Shown here: positions 10,048-57,996 of the stretch, one piece after another | How positions within the stretch are numbered: position 1 is the first letter of the stretch | Layout of the letters: every line of letters starts with the position of its first letter | Source: Bacteroidales bacterium | GTDB lineage: Bacteria; Bacteroidota; Bacteroidia; Bacteroidales; VadinHA17 | DNA: 64,000 nt | Assembly (NCBI GenBank): GCA_034004025.1 | Contig: JAVEXM010000001.1 | Location: 4,203-68,202 of the forward strand | Direction: 5' to 3' | The notes under the pieces: generated by a model | Databases searched by the model: none | Told to the model about the DNA's origin: nothing | What the model saw: the letters and a program-made list of their open reading frames with translations, nothing else | Position numbers and translations under genes: made by a program

Positions 10048-10113
10048 GAAATCGCAAATCGCACATCACAAATTCGTAAGTCAGACATCGCAAATCCCAA
10101 ATCGCAAATCCCT
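10048..10113. repeat. second heptamer array with an AAATC core (about 9 units)
   Basis: gaaatcg caaatcg cacatca caaattc gtaagtc agacatc gcaaatc ccaaatc gcaaatc. The 7-nt period holds throughout, and the array ends about 20 nt before the next ORF start. Confidence 0.8.
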
Positions 10114-10134
10114 TATGCTGCGGTTTGATTATAT

Positions 10135-11499: not shown

Positions 11500-11582
11500 T
11501 TGTCTTCAGCACGACTGCGGATACTGAAATCCTGTTCCGTAGTATTACCGTTCCTGTGCGACGCGGGCCCTGAACCGTTCTG

Positions 11583-11999: not shown

Positions 12000-13729
12000 A
12001 GTTTCATGTCAGCTATTACATTGTCTATCCTCTTCTCCAGTCCCTGCCACAGCTCTTCAAACCGGGTTACATCACTCATCTCCGTGTTGGCACTGAAATA
12101 GAACTTTATCTTCGGCTCGGTGCCGGAAGGGCGGACAGATATTTTCGTTCCGTCGGCCAGGAAGAACTGCAGGACGTTTGACTTCTCCATATCGAGGGCT
12201 GTCTTTTTTCCGGTGACAAGGTCCGTTGACAGCAGTGCCAGGTAATCGTTGTACATGATCACTTTGCTGCCGGCTATCTCCTTCGGCGGGCTGTTGCGGA
12301 ATCCTTCCATCATGCCCTTTATCTCTGCTGCACCCTCGGCGCCCTTTCTCACAACATTAACCAGCTTCTCGCGGTAGAGTCCGTATTCTGCATAGATGTC
12401 GAGCAACAGCTCCCACAGCGACTTCCCGTTGTCATGTGCCCATGCAGCTGCCTCGGCAATAAGGGTGATGGCTGATACACCATCCTTGTCGCGCACATAG
12501 TCGCCGGCCAGGTAGCCGAAGCTCTCCTCTCCGCCGCCGATATACTTCTCCCTGCCCTCGAGATCGCGCATCAGCTCGGCAAAGAACTTGAAGCCTGTCA
12601 GCACCCTGTACGACTTCACCCCGTTCCTGCCTGCTATGCCTCCCAGGAGGTCAGAGGTGACGATGGTATAAATAATGTACTCATTGCCCCTGAGCTCCCC
12701 GTTCTGTTTCTTCTGCGAGATAATGTACCAGGTGAGCAGTGCGCCGGTCTGGTTTCCGTTGAGAAGGATAAACTCACCCGAGGGTTTTCTGACGGCCACA
12801 CCCAGACGGTCGCCGTCGGGGTCAGTGGCCATGACCAGGTCGGCTCCCTTTTCCTTTGCCAGCGCCACAGCCATGGATAGTGCGTCGGGATCTTCAGGGT
12901 TGGGGGAACGGACCGTCGGGAAATTTCCGTCGGGCACCGACTGTTCCTTCACTGTGTGTACGTTGGTGAAGCCGTACATGGCAAGTGCCTCGGGGACAAT
13001 TTTATATCCGGTCCCGTGCAGGGGCGTATAGACAATCCCGATGTCATGATGGCGTCTGATCACATCGGGGTTGATGCTGAGAGCCTTAACGGCATCAAGA
13101 TATTTTTTGTCTGTCTCCTCACCAAGCATAATGATCCGTGATTCATCGCCTCCGGTTTTTATATCGCTCACGGATCTGATAGTGCGGACCTCTTCTATAA
13201 TACCCTTGTCATGCGGCGAGACCACCTGTCCGCCGTCGTTCCACGACACCTTGTAGCCGTTGTACTCTTTCGGGTTGTGTGAGGCGGTGATGTTGACCCC
13301 GCCGTCGCATCCGTAGAGTCTTATGGCGTATGAGAGTTCTGGCGTCGGCCTGAGCGACTCGAAGAGGTATGCGGTAAAGCCATTGGCAGTGAAGATATCG
13401 GCTGCCACCCTGGCGAAGTAGCTGCTGTTGTTGCGGCAGTCGTGGGCGATAGCCACCTTGATTGCCGAAGGGTTGGCAGCATGTTTCTTAAGGTAGTTTG
13501 CAAAACCCTGGGTAGCCATGCCGAGCGTATAGCGGTTCATCCTGTTGGTGCCGGCGCCCATGATGCCGCGCAGTCCGCCGGTGCCGAACTCAAGATCCTG
13601 GTAGAAGGCATCGATGAGTCCCTTCTCATCATTTTCAAGCAGGTTCTGCACCTCCCTGCGTGTAGTTTCGTCAAACTCTTCTCCGAGCCAGGCAGTGGCT
13701 CTTTTCCTGATTTCGTCGATGTTGATCAT
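11996..13729 (-). CDS. phosphoglucomutase/phosphomannomutase family phospho-sugar mutase
   Basis: 577 aa with the active-site [13 protein letters not shown] and the metal loop [10 protein letters not shown]. Confidence 0.9.
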
Positions 13730-16233: not shown

Positions 16234-18366
16234 ATGAGTGAAAACAAGGAAAAGGTCGAAAACAAAGAAAATGAAGACCTTAATTTAACAGAGAGCGGAG
16301 CTGAGAATAAGGGCACAGAAGAGGTTGCCGCGGAATCAACAACTGAAGAGGTGTCCGAAGAATCAACAACCGAAGAGGTTGCCGCAGAATCAGCACCCGA
16401 AGAGGTTGCTGCAGAATCAACAACCGAAGAGGTTGCCGCAGAATCAGCACCCGAAGAGGTGGTTACTGAGTCGGCAGGCGAGATGGTTGAAGAAGAGAAA
16501 CCCATCCTGAAGGAAAAGAAAGAAAAAAAGGTGAAGGCTGGAGATGCTGATGCTGCGGTAGCAGCGGCAGCAGCGGCGGCATCACCTGAAGAATTTGACT
16601 GGGACGCCTATGAAAAAGGAGGCTTCACGGCGCAGTCGAGCCGTGCTGACCAGGAGAAGCTCTACGAAGAGACTCTCTCAACAGTGGCTGTTGACGAGGT
16701 TGTCGAGGGCAAAGTGATCTCGATGAACAACCGCGAGGTAGTTATCAACATCGGGCAGAAGTCCGAGGGTGTTGTCAGTCTGAACGAATTCCGCTACAAT
16801 CCCGACCTCAAGGTTGGAGATATGGTGGAGGTTTATGTCGACAGCCAGGAAGACAAGAGGGGGCAGCTCGTTCTCTCGCACAAGAAGGCCAGGGCTTACA
16901 ATTCCTGGGACAGGGTCAACTCGGCCCTTGAGAACAATGAGATCATCACCGGTTACATCAAGTGCCGCACAAAGGGCGGTATGATTGTAGATGTCTTCGG
17001 CATAGAGTCGTTCCTGCCGGGTTCGCAGATAGATGTCAAGCCCATACGCGACTATGACGTCTATGTTGGCAAGACCATGGAGTTCAAGGTTGTAAAGATC
17101 AACCAGGAGTTCAAGAACGTTGTTGTTTCGCACAAGGCTCTCATTGAGGCCGAGCTTGAGCAGCAGAAGAAGGAGATCATCTCCAAGCTTGAAAAGGGAC
17201 AGGTCCTCGAGGGTACTGTCAAGAACATCACCTCCTACGGTGTATTCATTGATCTGGGCGGCGTTGACGGGCTCATTCACATCACCGATCTTTCATGGGG
17301 CAGGGTCAACCATCCCGAGGAGATTGTACAGCTTGACCAGAAGCTGAATGTGGTTATACTTGACTTTGATGACGACAAGAAGCGGATAGCTCTCGGGCTG
17401 AAGCAGCTTACGCCTCATCCGTGGGATTCGCTCAGTGAGACACTCAAGGTTGGTGACACCGTCAAGGGCAAGGTTGTTGTGATGGCCGATTACGGTGCCT
17501 TTGTAGAGATCACCACCGGTGTTGAGGGGCTCATTCATGTCTCTGAGATGTCATGGTCACAGCATCTTCGCAGTGCCCAGGAGTTCATGAAGGTAGGCGA
17601 CGAGGTTGATGCGGTGATACTCACCCTCGACCGTGAAGAGCGCAAGATGTCTCTGGGCATCAAGCAGCTTAAGCCCGACCCGTGGCAGAATATCGAACAG
17701 AAGTACAGCCTCAATTCGCGTCATAAGGCACGTGTCCGTAACTTCACCAACTTCGGCGTCTTTGTTGAGATTGAAGAGGGTGTCGACGGTCTGATACATA
17801 TTTCAGACCTCTCCTGGACAAAGAAGATCAAGCATCCTGCTGAGTTTACCTCCATTGATGCGGAGATCGATGTGGTTGTTCTTGAGATCGACAAGGATAA
17901 CAGGAGGCTCAGCCTGGGCCACAAGCAGCTCGAGGAGAACCCCTGGGACGTGTTCGAGGATCTCTTTACCGTTGATTCGGTGCATGAGGGAACAATAATT
18001 GAACTGTTTGACAAGGGTGCCATTATAGCTCTTCCTTACGGTGTTGAGGGGTTTGCAACTCCCAAGCACCTGGTCAAGGAAGACGGCACGGCAGCTGCCG
18101 CTGACGAGAAGCTCGATTTCAAGGTAATAGAGTTCAACAAGGGTGCCAAGAAGATCATCGTGTCACACAGCCGTATATATGAGGACGTGAAGAAGGGTAC
18201 CGAGACCGCATCAAAGAGGTCGGAGGCAGAAAATACAAGGAAGGCAACCCGCAAGATCAAGTCCAGTCTTGAGAAGACAACGCTCGGAGACATCAGTGAA
18301 CTGGCGGCCCTGAAGGAAGAGATGGAAGAAAAAGAGGCCAGAAGTATAGGTAAAAAGAAAAAATAA
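16234..18366 (+). CDS. rpsA: 30S ribosomal protein S1 with an acidic repeat-containing N-terminal extension
   Basis: 710 aa. From about aa 125 (EEFDWDAYEKGG...) it reads as a canonical six-S1-domain protein. The N-terminal 120 aa or so are extra. Confidence 0.9.
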   Translation: MSENKEKVENKENEDLNLTESGAENKGTEEVAAESTTEEVSEESTTEEVAAESAPEEVAAESTTEEVAAESAPEEVVTESAGEMVEEEKPILKEKKEKKVKAGDADAAVAAAAAAASPEEFDWDAYEKGGFTAQSSRADQEKLYEETLSTVAVDEVVEGKVISMNNREVVINIGQKSEGVVSLNEFRYNPDLKVGDMVEVYVDSQEDKRGQLVLSHKKARAYNSWDRVNSALENNEIITGYIKCRTKGGMIVDVFGIESFLPGSQIDVKPIRDYDVYVGKTMEFKVVKINQEFKNVVVSHKALIEAELEQQKKEIISKLEKGQVLEGTVKNITSYGVFIDLGGVDGLIHITDLSWGRVNHPEEIVQLDQKLNVVILDFDDDKKRIALGLKQLTPHPWDSLSETLKVGDTVKGKVVVMADYGAFVEITTGVEGLIHVSEMSWSQHLRSAQEFMKVGDEVDAVILTLDREERKMSLGIKQLKPDPWQNIEQKYSLNSRHKARVRNFTNFGVFVEIEEGVDGLIHISDLSWTKKIKHPAEFTSIDAEIDVVVLEIDKDNRRLSLGHKQLEENPWDVFEDLFTVDSVHEGTIIELFDKGAIIALPYGVEGFATPKHLVKEDGTAAAADEKLDFKVIEFNKGAKKIIVSHSRIYEDVKKGTETASKRSEAENTRKATRKIKSSLEKTTLGDISELAALKEEMEEKEARSIGKKKK
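16318..16479 (+). repeat. in-frame 27-bp x6 tandem repeat (EEVAAESTT / EEVAAESAP units) inside the rpsA 5' region
   Basis: Six consecutive 9-aa units, EEVAAESTT EEVSEESTT EEVAAESAP EEVAAESTT EEVAAESAP EEVVTESAG, parsed by hand from 16318. Confidence 0.9.
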
Positions 18367-18396
18367 CCTTACATTTAGTTGCCAAAATAATCAGCC

Positions 18397-18735
18397 ATGG
18401 ACTTTAACATTGAGAACAAGAAACAGTGCACGGTTATCAGTATCGAGACAGAGAAGCTTGATACTCATATCGCCCCCTCGCTCAAATCAGAACTGGTGCT
18501 CATCTCCGGCAAGGGAGAGAGAAACATCATTCTTGATCTGCAGAAATGTCAGTATTGTGATTCATCAGGTCTGAGTGCCATCCTGGTGGCAAACAGGCTC
18601 TGCAAGAATGCAGGCGGCACCTTTGTGCTGTGCGGCCTCAACGAGGCTGTAGAGCGGCTGATAACCATTTCACAGCTTGACACTGTGCTTTCAATTACAG
18701 CAGATATCGAGGAAGCAGAGAAGATCATCTCCTGA
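18397..18735 (+). CDS. STAS domain protein (anti-sigma-factor-antagonist-like)
   Basis: 112 aa. The segment LDLQKCQYCDSSGLSAIL contains the conserved phosphorylatable-Ser context. Confidence 0.8.
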   Translation: MDFNIENKKQCTVISIETEKLDTHIAPSLKSELVLISGKGERNIILDLQKCQYCDSSGLSAILVANRLCKNAGGTFVLCGLNEAVERLITISQLDTVLSITADIEEAEKIIS

Positions 18736-18749
18736 TGCCGGGCGGCAGA

Positions 18750-19664
18750 ATGTCGTTCAGGCTTACCATACTGGGTACAAGTTCTGCTCTGCCAACCTCA
18801 GACCGATATCCTACCGCTCATGTACTTAACGTGCATGAGCGGTTGTTTTTAATAGACTGCGGCGAAGGTACCCAGATGCAGATGCGCAGATACCGCATCC
18901 GTTTTGGAAAGATCAACCACATTTTTATAAGCCATCTTCACGGAGATCACTATTTCGGCTTATACCCGCTTCTCTCGTCATTCAATCTCATGGGCAGGAA
19001 GACACCTCTTCACCTCTATGCCCCGGAGCCCGTGGAAGAGCTGACCCGGAGGCACCTGTCCGATTTTGACATCAACCTCGGCTTCGAGCTGGTGATCCAT
19101 AGCCTGAAAAGCCGTGAATGCTCTCTAATTCTTAACGACAAGAGGGTTGAGGTCTTCTCCTTTCCTCTCAGGCACCGCATACCCTCGTACGGATTTCTCT
19201 TCAGGGAGAAGAGGGCGGAGAGGAACATCATTCCGGAGATGATCGGGAAGCACGGCCTGACGATAGCTGAGATAGCTCTCCTCAAGCAGGGGAGTGATAT
19301 TGTGCGCGAAGGGGGCGAGCCGGTCATTTGTAAAGAGGTCACCCTTCCTCCGCCTGAGCCGGTCTCCTATGCATTCTGCAGTGACACTGCCTGGTTCCCT
19401 GAGCTGTCGGAGTATGTCAGGGGTGTTGATCTTCTCTATCATGAGGCGACATTCGGTGACGATAATGAAGATCTGGCCCACAAAACGGGTCACTCCACGG
19501 CCCGGCATGCAGCTACCGTTGCGCGCGATGCGGGGGTGAAGAGGCTGGTAATAGGCCATTTCTCGGCTCGCTACAGAACGGTTGAAGGGCTGGAGGAGGA
19601 AGCCCGCCAGGTGTTTGCCGCAACTGAGGCAGCACGTGAAGGTGCCTCTTATATTATAGGCTGA
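18750..19664 (+). CDS. rnz: ribonuclease Z
   Basis: It has the metallo-beta-lactamase motif SHLHGDH. MSFRLTILGTSSALP is a typical N-terminus, so I prefer the ATG at 18750 over 18735. Confidence 0.85.
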   Translation: MSFRLTILGTSSALPTSDRYPTAHVLNVHERLFLIDCGEGTQMQMRRYRIRFGKINHIFISHLHGDHYFGLYPLLSSFNLMGRKTPLHLYAPEPVEELTRRHLSDFDINLGFELVIHSLKSRECSLILNDKRVEVFSFPLRHRIPSYGFLFREKRAERNIIPEMIGKHGLTIAEIALLKQGSDIVREGGEPVICKEVTLPPPEPVSYAFCSDTAWFPELSEYVRGVDLLYHEATFGDDNEDLAHKTGHSTARHAATVARDAGVKRLVIGHFSARYRTVEGLEEEARQVFAATEAAREGASYIIG

Positions 19665-19726
19665 TGGATTGTGAAGCTCAGATTGATTATCTTTGAGCCC
19701 GACAAAATAATTCTAATTATCCCCGC

Positions 19727-21256
19727 GTGCAGGAAAAGATACTGATCCTCGATTTCGGATCTCAGTATACGCAGCTCATCGCACGGCGTGTGCGTGAGCT
19801 CCATGTGTACTGTGAGATATATCCCTTCAACCATTTCCCCGCTCCTGACGAGAGTGTCAGGGGAGTGATACTCTCCGGGAGTCCCTTCTCCGTCCGTGAT
19901 GCCGGCGCCCCGGTGCCCGACCTCACCGGCATCAAGGGACATCTGCCCCTGCTGGGGGTCTGTTACGGGGCACAGTACCTCACACAGGCATACGGCGGGG
20001 AGGTGCTGCCGTCAGACACCCGCGAATATGGACGCGCCAGACTGGTGTCGGTCGACATGAATGATCCGCTCTTCACAGGCATTATAGCCGGGACCCAGGT
20101 ATGGATGTCCCACGGTGACACTATAGCACGCATACCCGACAGTTACATGATCACAGGATCAACGGAGGATGTGAAGGTTGCAGCATTCAGAATAGAGGGG
20201 GAGCAGAGCTGGGGTATCCAGTTTCATCCGGAGGTCTATCATACAACCGAAGGTCTTACAATGCTTGGTAATTTTGTCAGAGGTATCTGCGGCTGCAATG
20301 CCGGCTGGACACCTGAGTCGTTTGTTGAGATGACGGTAAGGTCGCTCAGGGAACAGATCGGCAATGACGGGGTGGTGCTGGGCCTCTCCGGCGGTGTCGA
20401 CTCATCTGTCGCCGCCCTGCTGCTTGACAGGGCCATAGGCGACAGGCTGACCTCCATTTTCGTCGACAACGGGCTGCTACGCAAGAATGAGTATGAGTCG
20501 GTGCTGGAGGCCTACAGGAGGATGGGTCTGAACGTCAGGGGTGTGGATGCCTCTGACTCCTTTATGCTGGGCCTCAGGGGGGTGGATGACCCGGAGACCA
20601 AAAGAAAGATCATCGGTCGTATATTCATTGAAGTGTTTGACCGTGAGGCCAGTAAGGTGAAGTATGTGAAGTGGCTGGCACAGGGTACCATCTATCCTGA
20701 TGTGATCGAATCCGTTTCGGTCAACGGCCCTTCGGCAACGATAAAATCGCATCACAATGTGGGAGGCCTGCCTGACAGGATGCATCTGAAGGTGGTGGAG
20801 CCCCTGCGCCTTCTCTTCAAGGATGAGGTGAGAAGGGTGGGGCAGGCGCTGAATATGCCCCGGGAGATACTCGGCAGACATCCTTTTCCCGGACCGGGGC
20901 TGGCCATACGTATCATCGGGGATGTCACACCTGAGAAGCTGACCACCCTCCGGGAAGCTGATGCCATTTTTGTGAACGGACTGAAGGAGAGCGGTTATTA
21001 CGACACTGTATGGCAGGCCGCCGTCATCCTCCTTCCCGTGCAGTCGGTAGGCGTCATGGGTGACGAAAGAACGTATGAAAATGCCGTTGTGCTGCGTGCC
21101 GTTACCTCTACCGACGGTATGACGGCCGACTGGAGCCACCTGCCCCATGAGTTTCTTGCCGATGTCTCAAACCAGATCATTAACAGGGTCAGAGGCGTCA
21201 ACAGGGTAGTATTTGACATAAGCTCGAAGCCCCCTTCAACAATTGAGTGGGAGTAA
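19727..21256 (+). CDS. guaA: glutamine-hydrolysing GMP synthase
   Basis: 509 aa. It has the GATase LGVCYGAQ motif, the ATP-PPase P-loop SGGVDSS, and the C-terminal [12 protein letters not shown] start is likely. Confidence 0.95.
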
Positions 21257-38802: not shown

Positions 38803-39318
38803 CTACTGTTTTAGTATTGCCATCAGTTCTGCCGCCAGTTTCTGCAATGGAGTATCATATTGTGTCATTGTACTGTCAAGACGGGCTATGATCCCCGCTT
38901 TGTGGTCAGCACTGATTGTCTCTGAACAGTTTTCCAAAACGGTAAAGCACTCGAGGGAGGTCATATAATCTCCCCACATGAAAGCTTCGCCCAATTCCAC
39001 GGCATATTCCGAGTAGTCGAGTCCCGACTGCCAGCATGAAGATGCCAGCATAGCCTTTGTTTCCGGCTTCTTTACACTGTCAAGAGATCCGATGACCTCA
39101 GGGCGTCCCGATCTTTCCTTCATGTCATTGAAAAATGCCGCAATTGCAGATTTTATCTCCTCCCTGTCGGTCTCATCGTAGAATCGGGCCAGAAGCATGA
39201 TCGCCCCCTCAAAAGGTTCTTCTGCCCTCAGCATACTAATCCGGTCATTTATCTCGTTATACTTTCCGTTACTGAGTATTCTGCGGAGCTCGGCAAGTTT
39301 CTTTTCAGACTTAATCAT
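38803..39318 (-). CDS. hypothetical protein (helical, no recognised motif)
   Basis: A 171-aa ORF with coding-like composition, convergent with the DHOD-like gene across only 7 nt. Confidence 0.55.
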   Translation of the reverse strand: MIKSEKKLAELRRILSNGKYNEINDRISMLRAEEPFEGAIMLLARFYDETDREEIKSAIAAFFNDMKERSGRPEVIGSLDSVKKPETKAMLASSCWQSGLDYSEYAVELGEAFMWGDYMTSLECFTVLENCSETISADHKAGIIARLDSTMTQYDTPLQKLAAELMAILKQ

Positions 39319-39436
39319 TATGGTTAATTTTGAACAAATTTATGTGTAATAATAACTTAAGGGCACATTTGATTATAAAAAAAATAAGTGTAATTTGGTC
39401 GGGTGTAAGCCTGTGAACTCTAAAAACAAGATCATT

Positions 39437-40357
39437 ATGAACAGTAATCTTAAAATTCTGCCACTTATCCTGGGAGTGACAGCTCTCTCGATCTGTCTGG
39501 TCGGCACATCATGCAAGGGAAAGACAAAAGGAGACACTTCGAAGGTGACCACGGAGGCTGTCAGTGCTGATGAGCAGACCATGGAGCAGATAAAGACCGC
39601 AGAGAAGGTTTTCAATGCTCTTCCCACTCCTCTGGAGGTAGCACAGCTGATCAAGGAGGCAGGTGCCAGTTTTGATGCCACACTGCTTAATCCCGTAGAG
39701 AACAGGAGCAATTATACCACCAGCAAGAGTATGGCTCTGAACCTTGGGATTTTTGTCTGTGATCTCAGTTTTGCGAGTATGTACGACGAGACCTCACTCC
39801 TTGTCAACTATATGGAGGCAGCCGAGAATATGGCAACGGGGCTGGGGATACTGGATGCAATAGATGAAACAACAATTGAGCGGCTGGAGCAGAATATCAA
39901 CAACCGGGATGTAATTATGGAGATAGTGTCAGAAACCTTCCTCAACTCACAGGCCTACCTGGAGGATGACGAACAGCACGCTGTTGCTGCCACAATCATC
40001 GCGGGAGGCTTCATTGAAGGGCTATATATCTCTACCAACATGGTTGATATGAAGAACTACAGGGGCAATAAGCTGGTAGGCACTATCGCTGACCAGAAGA
40101 TGTCAGTTGATGACATGATCCGTCTCCTCGAGACCTACAATGACAACAGTGCAATTCAGGAACTGATCGGCCCCATAAGGGAACTTAAGCTCATTTTTGA
40201 CAGGGTCGAACGTTCGTCGGCACCCTCATCAGCACAGTTGGATAAGGCTACCGGAGTGACTGAGATTTCCGGGTCGGCAATTTCAGAGATGAAACCGGAA
40301 GTGTTCACGGCTATCAAGGAGAAGGTTGGAGAGATCAGAAACGCATACGTAAAATAG
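39437..40357 (+). CDS. hypothetical lipoprotein
   Basis: A signal peptide plus lipobox-like LVGTSC KGK starts from the ATG at 39437, so I prefer this start over 39395. The protein is about 306 aa, mostly helical, with no recognised motif. Confidence 0.6.
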   Translation: MNSNLKILPLILGVTALSICLVGTSCKGKTKGDTSKVTTEAVSADEQTMEQIKTAEKVFNALPTPLEVAQLIKEAGASFDATLLNPVENRSNYTTSKSMALNLGIFVCDLSFASMYDETSLLVNYMEAAENMATGLGILDAIDETTIERLEQNINNRDVIMEIVSETFLNSQAYLEDDEQHAVAATIIAGGFIEGLYISTNMVDMKNYRGNKLVGTIADQKMSVDDMIRLLETYNDNSAIQELIGPIRELKLIFDRVERSSAPSSAQLDKATGVTEISGSAISEMKPEVFTAIKEKVGEIRNAYVK

Positions 40358-40363
40358 GGTCCG

Positions 40364-40807
40364 ATGAAACAGATTATACAAACAATTGTTCTGACAGTAC
40401 TCCTCTCACTTATCGGGGGAGGAGAAACAGCCGCACAGTGCAAGGGATTTGCCAAGTCGCTGTGTAAGAAGGAGCTGGGCGCATATCTTCATGACGGCAA
40501 CTATCATGCAGCAGTGCTGGTGGAAGGGGAGGAGGCTGAGCTCTACAAGACTTTCTACTCTGATCTCGATTACCGGCTTGTGATCTGCGGTGCCGACGGA
40601 CTTCCGCCCATCGAGTTCACGGTTCTTGATGCCACCGGCAAGGTGCTCTACTCAAACACGGAGGGGGGGCTGACCAATGTCTGGGATTTCAAGCTGGAGG
40701 CCAGCCAGCAGCTGAAGATAATGATCAAGGTGACTACATTCGGTATCAAGGATGAACTTCCCGCCAGCGGCTGCGTGGCAATAATGTTCGGTTTCAGAGC
40801 CAAATAA
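40364..40807 (+). CDS. hypothetical secreted protein
   Basis: 147 aa with a signal peptide (..GGGETAAQ C) and four Cys. It starts 6 nt after the lipoprotein gene, so the two are probably co-transcribed. Confidence 0.55.
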   Translation: MKQIIQTIVLTVLLSLIGGGETAAQCKGFAKSLCKKELGAYLHDGNYHAAVLVEGEEAELYKTFYSDLDYRLVICGADGLPPIEFTVLDATGKVLYSNTEGGLTNVWDFKLEASQQLKIMIKVTTFGIKDELPASGCVAIMFGFRAK

Positions 40808-40863: not shown

Positions 40864-41403
40864 TCATTTCTGCCCCTCCTCAAACAATGTCCGGCACCTG
40901 TTGCAAAGACTGCTGCTCTTCTGGTCAATGTCTTCGACGTAAGTGCTTGAACGCATGACGCATTCAGGTGCATGACAGTGCAGAAGTCCGAATGTGTGGC
41001 CCAGCTCATGTATCACCTCCTTGATGGCCCGGGCAAGAAGAATATCTTCATTCTTATTCATACCGTAAAGCTCGTTCCTCAGGCGATATATTGAAGCAAT
41101 TGCGGTCTTTTGACCCAGGACGGCCTGGCCGAATATGTAAGTGAGAATGGGAATGTAGAGGTCAATCCTGAAGAGACATATCAGCCTGTCATATATGTTA
41201 TGGGTGCACCCGTTAAGATGATGAAGGAGCTTATTACCGTCATATTGCCGCCTTGCCGGATTGTAGTAGGGGTTGAGATCCAGGTGACACTCCTCGGTAC
41301 TGACCTGGTACCTGAACTCAGATTCAACTGCCAGTGCGATACTTCTCAGAAACTCCTTTTCAAAAGGGCCGTTAGAAAGCAATATTATTTTTTTCTCTTT
41401 CAA
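40864..41403 (-). CDS. archaemetzincin-type zinc metallopeptidase (M54-like)
   Basis: 179 aa. HELGHTFGLLHCHAPECVM-(16 aa)-CNRC fits the archaemetzincin signature HExxHxxGxxxCxxxxCxM...CxxC, with a spacer of 16 rather than 17. Confidence 0.85.
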   Translation of the reverse strand: MKEKKIILLSNGPFEKEFLRSIALAVESEFRYQVSTEECHLDLNPYYNPARRQYDGNKLLHHLNGCTHNIYDRLICLFRIDLYIPILTYIFGQAVLGQKTAIASIYRLRNELYGMNKNEDILLARAIKEVIHELGHTFGLLHCHAPECVMRSSTYVEDIDQKSSSLCNRCRTLFEEGQK

Positions 41404-41423: not shown

Positions 41424-42764
41424 CTAATCTTTCTGCTTCAGACCATACTTCCTGATTTTGTTGTAAAGAGTTACTCTGTCAACATTCAGTGCCCTGGCAG
41501 AGCGGGACACATTCCAGCCGTACTTTATCAGTATCTCCTCAATGTGTCTCTTCTCAAGCTCTTCGAGGCTTTCAACAGAGCTGCTGATAGCTTCCTTTCC
41601 CATCGGAAGGTCTTTCAGCTTTATCTCCTTTCCGTTACCGATAACTATCGCGCGTTCGATCATATTCTCCAGTTCCCGTACATTCCCGGGGAACTCGAAC
41701 TGTTCCAGGTGTTTAATGGCTGCCGGATCAATTGTTATCAGGTCACGGCTCATGGAGGTGCAGTATTTCTTAATGAAGTGACTGACAAGCAGCGGTATAT
41801 CTTCAGTTCTTTCACGCAATGGAGGGATGGTGATATTGACGACATTAAGCCTGTAGAAGAGATCCTCGCGGAAGTTGCCGTTTTCTACCATCCCTTTCAG
41901 GTCCCTGTTAGTAGCGCATATGACTCTGAAATCAGATGTGATCTCCCTGTTGCCTCCCACTCGTACGAAGCTTTTGGTTTCAAGGACTCTCAGCAGCTCG
42001 ATCTGCATCTTGGGTGAGATGGTGGCTATCTCATCAAGGAAGATAGTGCCGCCGTCTGCCATTTCGAATCTGCCTTTGCGGTTGAATGTGGCTCCGGTGA
42101 AGGCGCCTTTCTCATGGCCGAAGAGCTCACTTTCGAGGAGGCTCTCGGTCAGGGCGCCGCAATGAACCGTGATGAGGGGGAAGTACCTGCGCGCAGAGTT
42201 CGAATGAATCGCTCTTGCAACCAGCTCCTTGCCAGTACCGCTCTCACCTGTGATAATTACCGAGGAATTTGACTGGGCCACACTCTCAATCTGATCAAGC
42301 ACTTTTCGGATTGCATCACTCTGACCGATAAAATCATCTATGGCTTCAAGGTTGGTGACTCTGTTTTTCAGGGCCTCATTTTCCCCTCGGAGAGCTATCT
42401 GTGCCGCAGCATTTCGGATAAGGTGCGACAGGTCATCAGGATCAAAAGGCTTGGTGACATAATCAAAAGCACCGTCTTTAAGCGCCTGCACAGCAGTGTC
42501 AACCGATGCAAATGCAGTCATGATGATGACGATGGAATCCCTGTTCAGGGCTTTGATACGCCGATGCATCTCCATCCCGTCCATGCCCGGCATCTTTATG
42601 TCCGCAAGGATGATATCAAAATCCCTGACCTCAAGCAGCTGAAGCGCTTTCTTTGCGTTCTCGGCACACTCTACGCTGTACCCGTCCTCAATGAACCAGT
42701 TCAGCAATGAATCCCTGACGGATTCTTCATCGTCAACAATCAGAATGGAAATCTTTTCTGCCAT
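41424..42764 (-). CDS. sigma-54-dependent response regulator (NtrC family enhancer-binding protein)
   Basis: 446 aa. It has a REC domain (ILADIKMPGMDG), AAA+ GESGTGKE, the GAFTGA loop, and a C-terminal Fis-type HTH. Confidence 0.9.
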   Translation of the reverse strand: MAEKISILIVDDEESVRDSLLNWFIEDGYSVECAENAKKALQLLEVRDFDIILADIKMPGMDGMEMHRRIKALNRDSIVIIMTAFASVDTAVQALKDGAFDYVTKPFDPDDLSHLIRNAAAQIALRGENEALKNRVTNLEAIDDFIGQSDAIRKVLDQIESVAQSNSSVIITGESGTGKELVARAIHSNSARRYFPLITVHCGALTESLLESELFGHEKGAFTGATFNRKGRFEMADGGTIFLDEIATISPKMQIELLRVLETKSFVRVGGNREITSDFRVICATNRDLKGMVENGNFREDLFYRLNVVNITIPPLRERTEDIPLLVSHFIKKYCTSMSRDLITIDPAAIKHLEQFEFPGNVRELENMIERAIVIGNGKEIKLKDLPMGKEAISSSVESLEELEKRHIEEILIKYGWNVSRSARALNVDRVTLYNKIRKYGLKQKD

Positions 42765-42774
42765 ATCATCCGTC

Positions 42775-44445
42775 TTACACGTTTTTTATAGGAAAAACCA
42801 GTGATATTGTGGTTCCTCTGCCTACCACGGAATCCACTTCTATCTTACCGCCATGATTCTGCACTATCCCGTGAACGATTGGAAGTCCCAGCCCGATACC
42901 CCTGGCATCCCGCTTTGTCGAAAAGAAAGGTTCGAAAATGTGGGAGATATCTTCCGGAGCTATGCCCGAACCGTTATCCGATATCTCAAGTCTTACAGTA
43001 TCACTATCACTGTTTAGTGTCCGGAGAACAATTTCACCGTTATCGGTCACCGCTTCGGAGGCGTTTACCAGCAGGGCGATGCATGCCTGTTTTACCTGGT
43101 TGGGACTGCAGTAGATGAGGTCAGAACGGGCTGACAGATCTGTCAGGAAGGTGATGTTGGCGATCTTTATGTGATGCATCATCAGATCATGTGTGTCCTG
43201 GACTATCTCATTCAGGTGCCTCTCCTCGAAGTCATCCTGGTCTTTCTGCGAGAAATCGAGAAGCCCCTTGACTATATCACCGCAGCGTTTGGTCTCGGTC
43301 TCAATGAGCTTGAGCTTCCGGAGCATGTTATCCTTCTTTTCGGGGTCAATATCCTGACCGTCAAGCTGCTTGTAAACCAGTTTTGTATAAATAAGTATCC
43401 CCGACAATGGGTTGTTGATTTCGTGTGCCACTGATGCCGAGAGCTTACCGAGGGAGGCTATCCTTTCTACATTAATCAGTTCATTTTGCGCTTCCGAAAG
43501 CTCTTCGGACTTTTTCTGAACCTTGTACTCAAGTTGTTTTGACCAGTTCTCCAGCTCCTCAGTTGCGTTGTCAATGTTGTCGAGCATGTTATTGAATGCC
43601 AGTGAGACCATCTTCATGTCGTCAAGCAGGTCAGGCCTTATATCCAGCCTGGTCTTCAGTTTCCCGGCTGAAACTGCTTCACTCGCCGTAATGAGTCTGT
43701 TCAGCGGATCTTTGATCTTCTTTCTGGTAAAGAGAATTAACATCAGGACAATGATGGCTGTAATTATCAGTGCCATGAGGAGAAACTCAACAGAGGATTT
43801 CTGCAGGGCATTGTCGAGATCCTTGAGAGGCATCCTGATAATCAGTGAGCCGAGCACCTCATCGGTTTCACTGTGTGCGTGGCATGATGCAGTGTAGCAT
43901 GACATCTCATTCAGGATCGGCCTCCTTATAAGCAGGTGCCTCTGCCCCGGCCGGTTGGGATTCATGCTGCAATCGCTCTTCTCATCAATTATCATGTAGC
44001 TCCTCTCTCTCTTGGCAAACATCTCGTTAAGATCGGAGTGACATGCAATACAGTCGGGATTACTGTGATATTCTGTTTCAGAGGTGAAGGAAGAATATGC
44101 CAGGTTGTCATTCTGGTCATAGAGATTGACATCGTCAATGCCCGGCATGGTGTTGATGATATCGAGTGTTCCGTGGAGCGTGCTCTTGTCGTTCTCAAGC
44201 ATTGATGTGTACAGCGCCCCCTCCACTATTGCACCTATGTTATTTCCGTTCTGTTTGAGCACAGTGTTGAAATAATTAACATAGACCGTCCTGAAGATTA
44301 TATTGAACGAAAGAAAAAGGACAATGGCAGCGAATGCAATTATTCCTACAACCCTGCTGTAGATCGTTGATTTGAGTCTGAAGTAACTGATTATGCGGGT
44401 CAGCAATGATCTGCGAATGGGGCTGTTGTCACCTGTGGTTGCCAT
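42775..44445 (-). CDS. sensor histidine kinase with a Cys/His-motif periplasmic domain and HAMP
   Basis: 556 aa. Two TM helices (about aa 31-53 and 221-239) flank a loop containing CIACH (aa 132-136) and CYTASCH (aa 183-189). It has the H-box SVAHEINNPLSG and the N/G boxes LVNASEAV, DNGSGI and GIGLGLPIV. Confidence 0.85.
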   Translation of the reverse strand: MATTGDNSPIRRSLLTRIISYFRLKSTIYSRVVGIIAFAAIVLFLSFNIIFRTVYVNYFNTVLKQNGNNIGAIVEGALYTSMLENDKSTLHGTLDIINTMPGIDDVNLYDQNDNLAYSSFTSETEYHSNPDCIACHSDLNEMFAKRERSYMIIDEKSDCSMNPNRPGQRHLLIRRPILNEMSCYTASCHAHSETDEVLGSLIIRMPLKDLDNALQKSSVEFLLMALIITAIIVLMLILFTRKKIKDPLNRLITASEAVSAGKLKTRLDIRPDLLDDMKMVSLAFNNMLDNIDNATEELENWSKQLEYKVQKKSEELSEAQNELINVERIASLGKLSASVAHEINNPLSGILIYTKLVYKQLDGQDIDPEKKDNMLRKLKLIETETKRCGDIVKGLLDFSQKDQDDFEERHLNEIVQDTHDLMMHHIKIANITFLTDLSARSDLIYCSPNQVKQACIALLVNASEAVTDNGEIVLRTLNSDSDTVRLEISDNGSGIAPEDISHIFEPFFSTKRDARGIGLGLPIVHGIVQNHGGKIEVDSVVGRGTTISLVFPIKNV

Positions 44446-44581
44446 TGCGGTTGTTTTTAGCGGTGTTACATCTCTTTGCAGTTATGCACCTCACTTCCAG
44501 GGGGAATTGCAAAGAGTGTATAAATCCTCTACAATGTACAAAAAAATCTTCAGGTGACCATTACTGACCTCACGACAGGTA

Positions 44582-46243
44582 TTATCTGAGGAACTTCACC
44601 TGGAACTCTTCCCAGACCTCAGGTCCGAATTCCTCAAGAAGTCCATCCTTAAACTCACCTCCATCCTGTAAAACCACATGAGCATATCTTAAATCGCCGG
44701 TGCCTGGCATTACTGAGAGAAAATCCCTTATTCGAGCAAATTCCTCTTTCAGGTAATCGATATATTTTCCGGCTATGACCATCAGGCGTGATTCCTTCTC
44801 CCAGTTGTCAGCTTCGATGGCATAGATCCAGCCCTCATCATACGGTGAGCTGTTCATTATCCCGGCATCTGCTGCCAGCCTCTCATTCCTCATGACTATT
44901 CTGCCACTTACCGGAGATTTCAGATCAAGCTGTTTGCCGTTCTGAATCACAGACACCACATGCTCTCCCTTGCGTACCTTTTCTCCGGGGTCCTTCATCC
45001 TCAGGCGGGTTACAGACCCGGTGAGATGTTGCAGGAAGTCGTCAATGCCGATCCTCACCAGGCCATCTTTTTCCATGAAGGCCCATGTATGACCTTTATC
45101 AAACAATATTCCGGCAGGTGTGATCAAAGACTTCAGGCTGAATGCCACTGATGGCTTTTGCATGGGTGAGACGATCTCTTCTGCACCTGACCTGGTTAAC
45201 CGGTATATTGCGTATGCTGCTGATGTAACTGTCACAATCACAGCAAGGATCCAGAGCCAGGCCCTGAATATCGGACGACTGTCTCTGCCAGCCATTACCA
45301 TTGCCTGGTCAGTAACCAGTGCATCCCTTCTGTTCATGCCTTCCCCACGGGCAAGGGCGGTAAAGCCTGTTCCTGCCAGTATGGGCTGTCCGTCGACCAG
45401 TACATATTTTATCAGATCGGAGGGTGCTCCCGGGGCCGGATTTGCGGCTGAGGCAGCATAGATATTATTGCACAGGGCTTTCGGATACTTGCCAATATAG
45501 ACCCCTCTGCTGAAACTGTTGTAATCGGCATAGAACTGTTCAAAATAGTCCGACCTTGCATTATTGTTCACATCCACGGGTATTATTTGTATGCCATCAA
45601 CGAATCCCTGGCCTGTCGGATCGGTTATATCTGCCAGGCGGCAGAATGCTATTGACTGCGGGTTACTGTTGAGGGCAGCCGGAATATCTGCAGAGGAGAG
45701 CGAGGTTGTGGCTCCGACAAGAGCCGGATCTGTTTGAGTGAACCTTGAGAGAGCACTGACCACTGCTATGTCATCAGGTATTAAAATGTTGACGGGGGAG
45801 GGGTTCTCATTATTGAGCAGCTCACCCCAGGTGGGAGTACCCTCAGCAGTCAGAATGCCGACAAACCTACCGGGAGAGATTCCGCTTGCCGTGATGCCGG
45901 AAAGGAAAGGATTCGTTGCACTCATAACCGGAACAATCACATCGCGCCCGACAACTATTTTCCACGCAGCTGTCTTTTCGGCGTTCCCCGATGAATTGCC
46001 GGTGATGAACATAATGTCCGCGCCTGCAAACTCCTCTGACGGGAGAACGGTCACCTCTGCATCGGGGTACTTTGCCCGAAATCCTTCGACCCACATCTTT
46101 GTCAGGGTCTCAGTTTCCGGGGAAGTTGCAACGCTGACCAGGTTTACAGGATTCTGAGCAGGTTCACTTTTGCTCTTCTGGCCGGCCATGATGCCGAAGT
46201 GAAGCATAATCAGGCATATCGTCAAAGGAATAATTCTTTTCAT
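44582..46243 (-). CDS. signal peptide + periplasmic PBP-like (PstS/phosphate-binding-type) domain + single TM helix + cytoplasmic GcvH-like domain fusion protein
   Basis: 553 aa with an N-terminal signal and a TM helix at about aa 325-347 (IFRAWLWILAVIVTVTSAAYAIY). The C-terminal part (GHTWAFMEKDGLVRIGIDDFLQHLTGSV...KSPVSGRIV...SSPYDEGWIYAIE) tracks the glycine-cleavage H-protein pattern. The PBP assignment is weaker and rests on resemblance only. Confidence 0.6.
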   Translation of the reverse strand: MKRIIPLTICLIMLHFGIMAGQKSKSEPAQNPVNLVSVATSPETETLTKMWVEGFRAKYPDAEVTVLPSEEFAGADIMFITGNSSGNAEKTAAWKIVVGRDVIVPVMSATNPFLSGITASGISPGRFVGILTAEGTPTWGELLNNENPSPVNILIPDDIAVVSALSRFTQTDPALVGATTSLSSADIPAALNSNPQSIAFCRLADITDPTGQGFVDGIQIIPVDVNNNARSDYFEQFYADYNSFSRGVYIGKYPKALCNNIYAASAANPAPGAPSDLIKYVLVDGQPILAGTGFTALARGEGMNRRDALVTDQAMVMAGRDSRPIFRAWLWILAVIVTVTSAAYAIYRLTRSGAEEIVSPMQKPSVAFSLKSLITPAGILFDKGHTWAFMEKDGLVRIGIDDFLQHLTGSVTRLRMKDPGEKVRKGEHVVSVIQNGKQLDLKSPVSGRIVMRNERLAADAGIMNSSPYDEGWIYAIEADNWEKESRLMVIAGKYIDYLKEEFARIRDFLSVMPGTGDLRYAHVVLQDGGEFKDGLLEEFGPEVWEEFQVKFLR

Positions 46244-46587
46244 ATCATTGATTGTTGATGTATTACACTATTCTATAACGCCTGTCCAATATGCATGCCA
46301 AACATTATAATGAAATGATAATGAGGGATATAGAATGTAATATGATATCTTCAGGCCGACGGTAAGTGTTGAAATAATATACAATTAGTATTAATGATTA
46401 ATATAAATAACAGAGAATAAACAAGTTAGAACTATGTGTAAAATATATACATGTGTTTAATATTACAACACTCTTAAAAATCCCAGAACGTAAGTAAATT
46501 ATATTCAATCATATAGAATGTCAACAAAGATCAGCAGCAATTTCTGATCATTTTTGATTCGGGAGTAGGTTGCGTTCCTGCTTTTTT

Positions 46588-55895: not shown

Positions 55896-56597
55896 ATGGA
55901 ACTTCTTCAAAGGCTTCTTGAGAATTCACAGTACTCGTTTATCACGGCGGCAATCCTTGGGCTGATGACTGCCATCAGCCCATGCCCGCTGGCTACCAAT
56001 ATTTCGGCAATAGGTTTTATCAGCCGTGATCTTACTGACCGGAGAAGGGTTTTTCTCAACGGACTCGTTTATACCCTTGGAAGAGCCATAACATATGTCG
56101 GTATTGCGTTGATCATATTCTTTGGCGCCAGCCAGATGGATATCTCCGGCTGGTTCCAGAGATGGGGAGAGAAACTGCTGGGCCCGGTTCTGATTCTGAT
56201 AGGTCTGTTTATGCTCGACATCATAAAACTAAAGCTTCCGGGCGGCATGGGATCATTTACGGAGAAGATAGGGGAGAGGGGCAGAAAGAGTTATCTGAAC
56301 ACCCTGCTTCTTGGAATTCTGTTTGCAATGGCCTTTTGCCCCTACAGCGGAGTTTTGTACTTCGTAATGCTGATACCTATGACAGTAGCCAGTGCTGACG
56401 GACTCTATCTGCCCCTGATCTTTGCAATCGCAACCGGTATTCCTGTGATCATCTTTGCATGGCTTCTGGCCTATGCGGTTGGCAACGTAGGCAAGATGTA
56501 CAGCAGGATCAGGACATTTGAACTCTGGTTCAGAAGAGTTGTGGCGGTACTGTTCATTGGCGTAGGAATCTATTACATTATAATAACCTACCTGTAA
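55896..56597 (+). CDS. CcdA/DsbD-family thiol-disulfide transfer membrane protein (family also annotated as ArsG-like)
   Basis: 233 aa with about 6 TM helices and two membrane-embedded Cys in SPCPL and FCPYS contexts. Confidence 0.75.
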   Translation: MELLQRLLENSQYSFITAAILGLMTAISPCPLATNISAIGFISRDLTDRRRVFLNGLVYTLGRAITYVGIALIIFFGASQMDISGWFQRWGEKLLGPVLILIGLFMLDIIKLKLPGGMGSFTEKIGERGRKSYLNTLLLGILFAMAFCPYSGVLYFVMLIPMTVASADGLYLPLIFAIATGIPVIIFAWLLAYAVGNVGKMYSRIRTFELWFRRVVAVLFIGVGIYYIIITYL

Positions 56598-56613
56598 AAA
56601 AAATTAAAAATGC

Positions 56614-56633
56614 ATTTCGGGTTTTTACGAAAT
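56614..56633. promoter_or_regulatory. inverted-repeat box 3 (ATTTCG-N8-CGAAAT), candidate ArsR operator
   Basis: atttcg ggttttta cgaaat, ending 19 nt before the ATG at 56653. Confidence 0.6.
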
Positions 56634-56652
56634 AAAAATCTTTAAAATAATA

Positions 56653-57996
56653 ATGGAACTCAGGAAAGAACTGAAGATCCTTCTGTGGATCATTGTGGTA
56701 TTTGTATTCGCGTTCTTCATGCCGATTGAAAGCGCCCGTTTCAACACGGCGATTGCTGCGACTTTCGATCTGGTCAGGTGGTATGCCCGGGAACATGTGA
56801 TATTATGCCTCCTGCCGGCATTCTTTATTGCAGGTGTCATCTCGGTATTTGTCAGCCAGGGATCGGTTATCAAATATTTTGGTGCGAATGCGAAGAAGTG
56901 GCTGGCCTATTCTGTGGCTGCCGTTTCCGGTACGATCCTGGCAGTCTGCTCATGTACTATCCTCCCGCTGTTTTCAAGCATCCACAAGCGCGGTGCCGGC
57001 CTCGGCCCGGCAATTGCCTTCCTCTATTCCGGCCCTGCAATCAATATCCTGGCAATCATTCTGACGGCCCGTATCCTGGGGTTTGAGATGGGTGTTGCGC
57101 GAGTCATAGGAGCCGTGGTTTTCAGCGTGGTGATAGGAGTGATAATGTCACTGATCTATCGTAAGGAAGAGCAGCAGAAAAGAGAGGATCAGATGAACAT
57201 AGTTGCTGAGCCGGAGAAAAGGCCTATGTGGCAGACAATGACGCACTTCTTTACCCTTGTCATCATCCTGGTCTTTGCAAACTGGGGCAGCCCGGCTGCT
57301 GACGATACTTCAAGTGCATGGTACTATATCTGGTCCTATAAGTGGTACATCACCGGTTTCTTCAGCCTGGTGCTCGGGTGGTCACTGATCAGGATCCTTA
57401 AGATCAAATGGCACTGGGTTCTGGCCGCAGCGGCAGTAACCGTAATTTCGGTGCTCCTTTCGAACGCCTTCATTGAAAGTGCGAAGCTGAGACCACTGGT
57501 GCCCATGGTTGTGGGGATAGCAGCATTAAGCATTATTACGCTCTTCGATAAGCAGGATGATGAGAACCGTGAGTGGACACTCTCAACATGGGGTTTCGCC
57601 AAACAGATAATGCCCCTCCTTGCAATCGGGGTTGTGATTGCCGGTTTTCTCCTTGGGTCGACCCATGACGGCCAGAGTATCCCCGGGATTATACCGAATG
57701 AATGGATCGCAAAACTCGTTGGCGGCAACTCGGTATTCTCAAACTTCTTTGCATCAATAGTAGGTGCCTTCATGTACTTTGCCACACTCACAGAAGTGCC
57801 GATACTTCAGGGACTGATAGCCTCCGGTATGGGTAAGGGCCCTGCCCTGGCCCTGCTCCTTGCCGGGCCTTCGCTTTCTTTGCCTAATATGTTGGTTATC
57901 AGAGGTATTATTGGAAATCAGAAAACGGCAGTATACGTTGCCCTGGTTGTTGTTATGGCGACAATATCAGGCCTTATGTATGGATCAATCTTTTAA
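56653..57996 (+). CDS. polytopic permease (UPF0718 / ArsP-like permease family)
   Basis: 447 aa, multi-TM, with AVCSCTILPLF (a CxC in a TM helix) as in this permease family. Confidence 0.7.
   Translation: MELRKELKILLWIIVVFVFAFFMPIESARFNTAIAATFDLVRWYAREHVILCLLPAFFIAGVISVFVSQGSVIKYFGANAKKWLAYSVAAVSGTILAVCSCTILPLFSSIHKRGAGLGPAIAFLYSGPAINILAIILTARILGFEMGVARVIGAVVFSVVIGVIMSLIYRKEEQQKREDQMNIVAEPEKRPMWQTMTHFFTLVIILVFANWGSPAADDTSSAWYYIWSYKWYITGFFSLVLGWSLIRILKIKWHWVLAAAAVTVISVLLSNAFIESAKLRPLVPMVVGIAALSIITLFDKQDDENREWTLSTWGFAKQIMPLLAIGVVIAGFLLGSTHDGQSIPGIIPNEWIAKLVGGNSVFSNFFASIVGAFMYFATLTEVPILQGLIASGMGKGPALALLLAGPSLSLPNMLVIRGIIGNQKTAVYVALVVVMATISGLMYGSIF

Follow-up and report, generated by a model that had tools for sequence, protein, structure and literature searches.

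A Bacteroidales Histidine Kinase Is Probably a Two-Heme Relative of the Geobacter c-Heme Periplasmic Sensors

A histidine kinase gene within a stretch of 64,000 nucleotides (nt) from a Bacteroidales bacterium (assembly GCA_034004025.1, contig JAVEXM010000001.1, positions 4,203 to 68,202; this whole stretch is called the window in the following) raises the question of whether its periplasmic sensor domain carries heme c and, if so, at which residues. The gene is located at 42775..44445 on the minus strand, as are all features of the kinase and its operon that are described below, and encodes a protein of 556 amino acids (aa). The open reading frame (ORF), its translation, and the Pfam matches give the order first transmembrane helix (TM1), periplasmic sensor, second transmembrane helix (TM2), HAMP (aa 240-291), HisKA (aa 332-403), and HATPase_c (aa 448-554), whereby the NCBIfam matches are AtoS/ZraS-like and cover the kinase core only. 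Periplasmic c-heme sensors were described in Geobacter in 2006-2008 and work on them has, to our knowledge, hardly gone beyond Geobacter, Desulfovibrio, a cyanobacterium, and recently Pseudomonas. Our analysis suggests that the kinase from the window is probably a diverged two-heme relative of the Geobacter sensors, which would assign it to a known class but to a little-studied two-heme subgroup of it. We consider it very likely that at least one heme is bound and fairly likely that there are two.

Two Heme c-Type Motifs Are Located Between the Transmembrane Helices of the Kinase

A sequence-only reading of the window had placed two cysteine/histidine motifs, CIACH and CYTASCH, between the transmembrane helices of the kinase and had proposed a periplasmic heme c or metal sensor. 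Translation of 42775-44445 locates both motifs exactly where they had been claimed: CIACH, which is a canonical CXXCH, covers aa 132-136 (44038..44052), and CYTASCH covers aa 183-189 (nt 43899-43879), 46 residues away and within the same Cache domain. With the following Ala and His the second motif extends to CYTASCH-A-H (aa 183-191, 43873..43899). TM1 (aa 31-55, 44281..44355) was assigned by a hydropathy scan and is preceded by an Arg/Lys-rich N-terminus, whereas TM2 (aa 218-240, 43726..43794) was assigned by hydropathy together with the HAMP match, into which it runs. Because the cytoplasmic flanks are rich in Arg and Lys and HAMP follows directly after TM2, the region of aa 56-217 (43795..44280) is predicted to be periplasmic. 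Thus, hydropathy, charged flanks, and HAMP placement agree on the topology that had been assumed for the motifs. The periplasmic loop of approximately 160 aa contains five Cys and six His residues. In 200,000 shuffles of the periplasmic domain, in which its own five Cys and six His were kept, both motifs co-occurred by chance at a frequency of 9.5e-5, and the kinase is the sole ORF of at least 100 codons with a CXXCH in all six frames of the window.

Profile and Model Comparisons Point to a Single-Cache Heme Sensor of the Geobacter Type

The single sensor sequence yielded nothing but noise when compared to the PDB sequences, with xylanases at E=0.2 and cytochromes above E=1. A profile was built from an alignment of the window domain with 38 distant relatives (39 members in total). 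This profile matches the sensor domains of GSU0935 (3B42, E=1.1e-6) and GSU0582 (3B47, E=3.2e-4) from Geobacter, and the matches are collinear over both halves of the domain. In addition, PF21563 (Mcp40H-20_sensor), whose name refers to these chemoreceptor sensor domains, is matched by 29 of the 39 members, with a best E of 1.1e-6, and PF11845 (Tll0287-like) is matched weakly by 8 of them. The AlphaFold2 model calculated from the same alignment (pLDDT 85.4, pTM 0.80) consists of a long N-terminal helix, a five-stranded antiparallel sheet, and a C-terminal helix in the order H-H-E-E-(H)-E-E-(H)-E-H. The top Foldseek matches of the model are the extracellular Cache domain of WalK (7dud, 4ywz; E=9e-6, TM-score 0.56-0.69). 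Foldseek also finds 3B42 (E=6.5e-5) with a high root-mean-square deviation, probably because 3B42 crystallised as a domain-swapped dimer (PMC8396549). As judged from the profile, the AlphaFold2 model, and the Foldseek matches, the domain is a single-Cache sensor (PDC/PAS-like, formerly termed "PAS-like") of the Geobacter c-heme type with two predicted c-heme sites. The heme c reading, which had been drawn from the motifs alone, is thereby supported by homology, namely by the profile matches to 3B42 and 3B47, by PF21563, and by the predicted Cache fold.

A cytochrome of the c3/c7 type was also considered. Tetraheme cytochrome c3 and cytochrome c7 (PF02085, PF14537, PF14522) resemble the window protein in that CX4CH occurs alongside CXXCH, in their case as a genuine site of heme attachment, and the cytochrome c3 of Desulfovibrio vulgaris has a CGTAGCH motif that resembles CYTASCH. 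However, the matches over aa 125-196 stay below threshold (Cytochrome_C7, E=0.16-0.25; Cytochrom_c3_2, E=0.21; 11.6-12.5 bits versus cut-offs of 24.8-25), and c3/c7 proteins are small all-heme cores, whereas the predicted fold of the window domain is that of a Cache domain, with two beta-strands of its sheet lying between the two motifs. A c3/c7-type cytochrome was thus rejected.

Both Motifs Are Conserved From Close to Distant Relatives

The sequence-only reading had named the conservation of the Cys and His residues in orthologues as a check. A close set was compiled from the 120 best full-length homologues, which are 73-95% identical to the kinase and all come from metagenome-assembled genomes (MAGs) labelled as Bacteroidales or "bacterium"; 119 of them were aligned. 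In this set C132, C135, H136, C183, H189, and H191 are present in 119/119 sequences and C188 in 118/119. M82 and C159 are likewise found in 119/119, and H127 is invariant, too. The periplasmic domain is conserved at least as well as the kinase core, with a mean column identity of 84% compared to 81%. A search of the kinase in one genome per species identified 34 genomes carrying it, without exception with both motifs. Most of these genomes bear the label Bacteroidales, Rikenellaceae, or Rikenella. In addition, there are a Prolixibacteraceae MAG and several genomes assigned to Bacteroidetes without further detail, one of them a MAG from the Black Sea. The statement that such a domain is not standard in Bacteroidota has to be revised in this respect, as the domain is not exotic there and occurs with the kinase in 34 species-level genomes.

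When the sensor domain alone was used for an exhaustive HMMER search, 302 cluster representatives were obtained at E<=1e-3. For the distant set, 105 of these and the query were aligned (106 rows, mostly 25-35% identical). Here, C132 and C135 are each kept in 98/106 rows, H136 in 101/106, C183, C188, and H189 in 105/106, H191 in 103/106, and M82 in 105/106. Further near-invariant positions are G113, S118, R169, L171, P176, I177, N179, L198, G199, L207, and D211. Labelled members of the family come from Thermodesulfobacteriota/"Deltaproteobacteria" (Syntrophales, Desulfobacterales, Desulfofustis), Marinimicrobia, Zixibacteria, Acidobacteria, and Bacteroidota, and both histidine kinases and a GGDEF protein are found among their outputs. 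The Cys and His residues are thus kept in the close homologues, in the 34 genomes, and in most of the distant relatives, and because of this conservation a chance origin of the motifs is excluded. That all six attachment residues are retained across 34 species argues, as far as sequence conservation can tell, that the sites are in use.

In several long metagenome contigs the sensor, HisKA, HATPase, and regulator parts are called as separate short genes (L039, L041, L042, L043, and L044). These fragmented calls look like frameshifts of long-read assemblies, and this fragmentation accounts for the many proteins in the homologue lists that consist of sensor plus HAMP only.

CX4CH Appears to Be the Ancestral Heme Site and CXXCH an Added One

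In the profile alignment with the hidden Markov model of the family, the segment "PI.NE..C(x4)CHAH....LG" falls on "PFPNEQRCQ--SCH--DAGAAYLG" of 3B42, whereby CX4CH comes to lie over the CQSCH of GSU0935. The heme site of GSU0935 is formed by Cys140/Cys143/His144 with Met60 as the distal ligand; Met60 binds the reduced heme and is released upon oxidation or upon binding of nitric oxide (NO) or carbon monoxide (CO) (PMC8396549). M82 of the window protein (44200..44202), the invariant Met of an "S-M-L-x-N" motif, aligns to residue 26 of 3B42_A, which is Met60 (offset 34; His144 is chain residue 110). Its invariance and this alignment lead to the prediction that Met82 serves as distal axial ligand to the CX4CH heme. 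At the shared site before the last beta-strand there is no canonical CXXCH in the window protein, and the aligned site reads C-YTAS-C-H, a spacing variant. Among 321 family sequences the spacing between the two Cys residues at this site is four residues in 310, three in six, five in four, and two in one. A precomputed PF21563 label is carried by many relatives, and proteins with this label likewise show the two sites, with CX2CH, CX3CH, or CX4CH in this very place. The spacing variation was noted across P0122, P0124, P0345, and P0358, across P0308-P0316, and across P0319 and P0398-P0400. CX5CH occurs in four Bacteroidota-type proteins, whereas the inserted site is always CXXCH.

The CXXCH motif, in turn, lies within profile positions 76-109; GSU0935 bridges this stretch with a connection of roughly half that length (chain residues 60-77). 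The model places the motif in a helix (75-81) that is inserted between beta2 and beta3. CYTASCH had been regarded as the odd, non-canonical motif of the two. The alignment reverses this assignment, since CX4CH sits on the canonical Geobacter heme site and CXXCH is the addition. On the basis of the aligned sequences, CX4CH is taken to be the ancestral heme site and CXXCH the added one.

The Bacteroidota-type branch shows two further peculiarities. It carries a 9-residue insertion after CXXCH (aa 139-147, 44011-44037), and it has a clade-specific C-x-M, which in the window protein is C159-S-M161 (43963..43971) and contains the fifth periplasmic Cys. The C-x-M is present in 164 Bacteroidota-type sequences, whereas the additional Cys is absent from 151 other members of the family. 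The relative P0128, which is without CXXCH, is also without C-x-M. C159-S-M161 is a candidate for providing the distal ligand to the heme at CXXCH, whose sixth ligand might be H191, C159, or M161.

Comparison With Known Heme Sensors

The window protein shares with GSU0935 and GSU0582 a domain of approximately 130-160 aa between two transmembrane helices followed by HAMP, the Cache/PAS-like fold, a heme motif just before the last beta-strand and after P-x-x-N-E, and a distal Met on the N-terminal helix. It differs from them in its CX4CH instead of CXXCH, in the second CXXCH within an insertion, and in H191 two residues after the proximal His. Moreover, GSU0935 and GSU0582 are methyl-accepting chemotaxis proteins, whereas the output of the window protein is a histidine kinase. 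The GSU sensors switch between a His/Met low-spin and a high-spin state with the redox state and bind NO and CO (PMC8396549). In Geobacter sulfurreducens twelve signal transducers with one or, in the case of GSU0591 and GSU0599, two c-heme motifs have been reported, with the signature given as "CX2-4CH" (PMC8396549). GSU0599 is a two-component system protein (PMC8396549, PMC3831638), and a passage in PMC3831638, which refers to Londer et al. 2006, mentions an extra heme motif for Adeh_2011 and Adeh_3383 of A. dehalogenans. By their published descriptions, rather than by their sequences, these four two-motif sensors resemble the window protein in having a periplasmic heme-PAS-like domain with two CX2-4CH motifs; in the window protein the layout is CXXCH, about 46 residues, and CX4CH-x-H. 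The third homologue search returned no named Geobacter protein, and our literature searches found no biochemical characterisation of GSU0591, GSU0599, Adeh_2011, or Adeh_3383.

A 2026 preprint combines GSU0582, GSU0935, and Tll0287 in a group named "sCache_heme", in which 99% of the members have a CXXCH, and reports that those of its members that are linked to signalling modules act as NO sensors (PMC12889525). This group (DUF3365/Tll0287, PF11845) and the window protein have in common the extracytoplasmic single-Cache domain with covalent heme c on a short inserted helix, which for the window protein is a prediction. In contrast to the sCache_heme domains with their one heme, their CXXCH, and the Cys/His ligation used by some of them, the window protein has CX4CH, a predicted Met ligand, and a predicted second site.

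The present assignment places a well-conserved two-heme branch in a widespread clade of uncultured environmental Bacteroidales and offers candidate residues for both sites, namely His189/Met82 for one heme and Cys132/Cys135/His136 for the second. The drift of the spacing from 2 to 5 at a retained ancestral site may inform on the tolerance of heme lyases and on the building of better family models, which are wanted because the current Pfam models miss the window protein.

The Kinase Belongs to an Operon With a Sigma-54 Activator and Variable Redox Genes

The gene following the kinase encodes a response regulator of 446 aa (41424..42764) with a REC domain (Response_reg, 8.5e-32), an AAA+ sigma-54 activator domain (Sigma54_activat, 7.2e-70), and a Fis-type helix-turn-helix (HTH_8). 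It starts 10 nt downstream of the kinase, and the pair is adjacent in 34/34 loci. A HisKA-HATPase kinase with a REC-AAA+-HTH_8 sigma-54 activator immediately downstream is also the arrangement of AtoS/AtoC, ZraS/ZraR, and NtrB/NtrC; however, all scores stay far below the equivalog cut-offs, and the sensor domain shows no relationship to those of AtoS, ZraS, or NtrB. The last gene of the operon (40864..41403) encodes an archaemetzincin-type M54 metallopeptidase (Peptidase_M54, 1.8e-25; NCBIfam archmetzin, 5.4e-47). It follows the regulator in 34/34 loci and also in the distant metagenome locus L042.

The first operon gene (44582..46243) encodes an unusual fusion protein of 553 aa, consisting of a signal peptide, a PBP-like periplasmic domain with a weak PBP_like_2 match (PstS-type), a transmembrane helix, and a cytoplasmic GcvH-like domain (GCV_H, 2.9e-23, aa 381-500). 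It is found upstream of the kinase in all 33 loci that reach that far. A comparison by eye with GcvH from Escherichia coli shows Gly at the lipoyl-lysine position and a Lys one residue later. Lipoylation of this domain is therefore doubtful.

In approximately 19 of the 34 loci, including L002, whose kinase is 95% identical to that of the window, three more genes lie between the first gene and the kinase. These encode a Tat-exported four-cluster Fe-S protein (NCBIfam HmcB, 8.8e-99; HybA, 1.3e-74), an NrfD-family membrane protein (HmcC, 3.7e-124), and a GcvH-like protein anchored by a transmembrane helix. In the window this position is occupied by a 136-bp spacer (44446..44581), which according to the alignment to L002 (compare L002 6962-10000) is the scar of a deletion of approximately 2.9 kb. 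The window aligns to L002 until 6945 and restarts at 9825, whereby 32 nt are common to both alignments. These 32 nt belong to the 3' ends of the two GcvH-like genes, which resemble each other, and this suggests that about 2.9 kb were lost by recombination. L001 and L030 carry a different deletion that has left remnants, and the loss of the HmcB/HmcC-like genes is thus recurrent.

A Conserved, Putative Sigma-54-Like Promoter Upstream of the Operon

The intergenic regions upstream of the first operon gene were aligned for 23 sequences. They contain one strongly conserved element, TGGCA(C/T)-N5-TTGG, which in the window reads TGGCATGCATATTGG (46286..46300, 43-57 nt before the first ATG) and represents a predicted sigma-54-like promoter with -24 GG and -12 TTGG. 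The element occurs once in the window and exactly once per locus in 26/34 loci. In 25 of those 26, among them the Prolixibacteraceae locus L033, it closely precedes the first gene and has the orientation of the operon; the remaining match, in L023, lies on the opposite strand inside the kinase gene. Since the operon itself encodes a sigma-54 activator, autoregulation would be the simplest reading. A second conserved block, about TATATATCTCATTATC, was observed approximately 25 nt further upstream of TGGCATGCATATTGG. A scan of the window for the canonical TGGCAC-N5-TTGCW gave 5 matches with one mismatch versus 2.5 expected, and the nearest one (40439-40454) was discarded as it lies within a coding ORF.

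Proposed Signalling Mechanism

By analogy to the Geobacter sensors the following course might be imagined. Heme A would be attached at C183/C188 with H189 as the proximal and M82 as the distal ligand, which would copy the His144/Met60 heme of GSU0935. M82 is located on the long N-terminal helix that continues into TM1. Heme B would be attached at C132/C135/H136 in the inserted helical segment and might be completed by H191 or by C159/M161. A redox change in the periplasm or the binding of NO or CO would displace or restore the Met ligand, as in GSU0582 and GSU0935, and this switch could shift the N-terminal helix relative to TM2, from where the signal would run via HAMP into the kinase core and lead to phosphorylation of the sigma-54 enhancer-binding regulator encoded next to the kinase. 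This regulator would in turn activate the sigma-54-like promoter of its own operon and with it the PBP/GcvH-like protein, the kinase, the regulator, and the archaemetzincin. In relatives, the operon additionally contains an HmcB/HmcC-like quinone-linked redox module. The motifs, the topology, the fold, the homology, the alignment of the ligand residues, and the conservation of the operon and of the promoter motif are shown by the present data, whereas the binding of heme, the switching of its ligand, the kind of signal, and the autoregulation are inferred. The signal might be the redox poise, a diatomic gas, or a direct electron exchange with the Hmc-like module. If the heme assignment holds true, these fermentative or anaerobic Bacteroidales would feed a periplasmic redox or NO signal into sigma-54-dependent transcription.

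Evaluation of the Two-Heme Assignment and Its Alternatives

Several points weigh against a two-heme sensor that acts in this way. Neither the kinase nor its isolated sensor matches PF21563 or PF11845 at E<=1, and since the direct search alone finds no relationship, the link of the window protein to the family runs through the family profile. The 64-kb window contains no CcsA, ResB, or Ccm gene and no other c-type cytochrome. A heme c in a Bacteroidota host would use the System II maturation pathway, for which attachment to CX4CH is only predicted. H191 is kept in a few relatives that do not have the CXXCH, and its role as a ligand of the CXXCH heme is therefore doubtful. The -12 element of the promoter is TTGG, whereas the consensus is TTGC, although the -24 GG and the spacing fit a sigma-54 promoter. 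Finally, the redox module is deleted in the genome of the window, so the output of the system is unclear here.

The alternative that survives best concerns the function of the domain rather than the presence of heme. It might be that the domain is mainly an electron-transfer cytochrome tethered to a kinase, which exchanges electrons with the HmcB/HmcC-like module or with multiheme cytochromes and reports on electron flux or the quinone pool. HmcB-like, HmcC-like, GcvH-like, and multiheme cytochrome genes indeed adjoin the sensors in several distant lineages. HmcB/HmcC-like and GcvH-like genes recur on unrelated metagenome contigs beside sensors that are just 23-29% identical. L042 has the order GCV_H twice, Fer4_11, NrfD, GCV_H, kinase, sigma-54 regulator, and M54. 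L039 has Fer4_11, NrfD, a Cytochrom_CIII multiheme protein, sensor, REC, GCV_H, and a REC-GCV_H fusion, and L041 has sensor, sigma-54 regulator, GCV_H, a DVU_0533(HmcD)-like-GCV_H fusion, NrfD, Fer4_11, a multiheme cytochrome, and a cytochrome b. Other members of the sensor family are found in different gene contexts. In the Bacteroidales operons seen, the sensor of the kinase is the sole encoded protein with a heme motif, which would also fit such a role. However, the HmcBC-like genes have disappeared from the genome of the window and from about 13 related ones, in all of which the sensor stayed intact, which indicates that the sensor is independent of this module. We regard a mainly electron-transferring domain as unlikely, albeit as the strongest of the alternatives to a ligand-switching sensor.

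The same gene neighbourhoods allow for a wider reading, in which the kinase heads an undescribed, apparently sigma-54-controlled module common to Bacteroidota, Thermodesulfobacteriota-type, and other metagenomic lineages. This module would comprise the HmcB-like periplasmic Fe-S protein, the HmcC/NrfD-like quinone-interacting membrane protein, one to three membrane-anchored GcvH-like proteins, and the archaemetzincin. The hemes of the sensor would be reduced or oxidised by the module or by neighbouring multiheme cytochromes and would read the electron flux between the quinone pool and the periplasm rather than a diffusible ligand, and the window would represent a recent deletion variant that has retained the sensory and GcvH-like parts. 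We hold this speculative proposal to be rather improbable. The conserved link with HmcBC-like and GcvH-like genes points to a redox module, and a literature search found no description of an association of GcvH, HmcBC, and archaemetzincin. The recurrence of the gene set was also noted for L033 and L034.

Less probable still is a mono-heme sensor like GSU0582 and GSU0935, in which one motif alone, most likely CX4CH, carries heme and the other one is structural or vestigial. About ten family members that are truly without CXXCH keep CX4CH-x-H, and the solved homologues have one heme each. Against this stands the retention of C132, C135, and H136 in 98-101/106 distant and 119/119 close relatives, since complete retention of a CXXCH at 25% identity is hard to explain without a heme. 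Moreover, there are exactly two invariant candidates for distal ligands, M82 and H191, for the two sites. Hence, two hemes remain the preferred assignment.

That the Cys and His residues form a metal site for Zn, Fe, or Cu or redox-active disulfides of a periplasmic metal or thiol-redox sensor, an option which the sequence-only reading had kept for the second motif, might be suggested by the clustering of five Cys and six His within 160 residues, by the unverified cytochrome c maturation of the host, and by the lack of a significant direct heme-family match, but is very improbable, because in both motifs the His directly after the second Cys is the signature of heme c, because CX4CH aligns to the heme CXXCH of two crystal structures with the distal Met conserved throughout, and because the variation from CX2CH to CX5CH at the same position suits a heme loop but would be harder to reconcile with the fixed geometry of a metal chelate.

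Other Heme Proteins and Further Genes of the Window and Related Loci

In 635 kb of related loci, which were covered with flanks of up to 10 kb, c-type cytochromes were found in L034 only, and the other ORFs with CXXCH in these loci were rejected as antisense artefacts. L034, from the Black Sea Bacteroidetes MAG, encodes two candidates, a 7-CXXCH protein and a small lipoprotein-like CXXCH protein. Approximately 5 kb downstream of the operon it harbors the genes for the lipoprotein-like CXXCH protein, a DUF5777 beta-barrel, the 7-CXXCH cytochrome, and a cytochrome b561. This 7-CXXCH cytochrome and the cytochrome b561 are the sole indirect hint at a host capable of making c-type cytochromes. The same locus contains two tandem paralogues of the two-heme kinase; paralogues and downstream genes together were noted at 9983-13304 and 17651-20553. 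A literature search yielded nothing on multiheme cytochromes in Rikenellaceae-type MAGs.

Within the window a DsbD_2 gene (55896-56597), for which the Pfam name is "cytochrome c biogenesis transmembrane region", was considered as a candidate for CcdA, but it encodes an ArsG-family aromatic arsenical efflux permease (NCBIfam, 4.6e-91). It adjoins an ArsP_1 permease gene, and together they form an arsenic-resistance pair on the plus strand (55896-57996) that is unrelated to cytochrome maturation. Just downstream of the kinase operon (38803-40807) there are three adjacent ORFs without a Pfam match. They encode proteins of 171 aa (minus strand), 320 aa (plus strand, with a lipoprotein-like N-terminus), and 147 aa (plus strand, with a signal peptide), and the near-identical contigs L035-L038 contain them as well.

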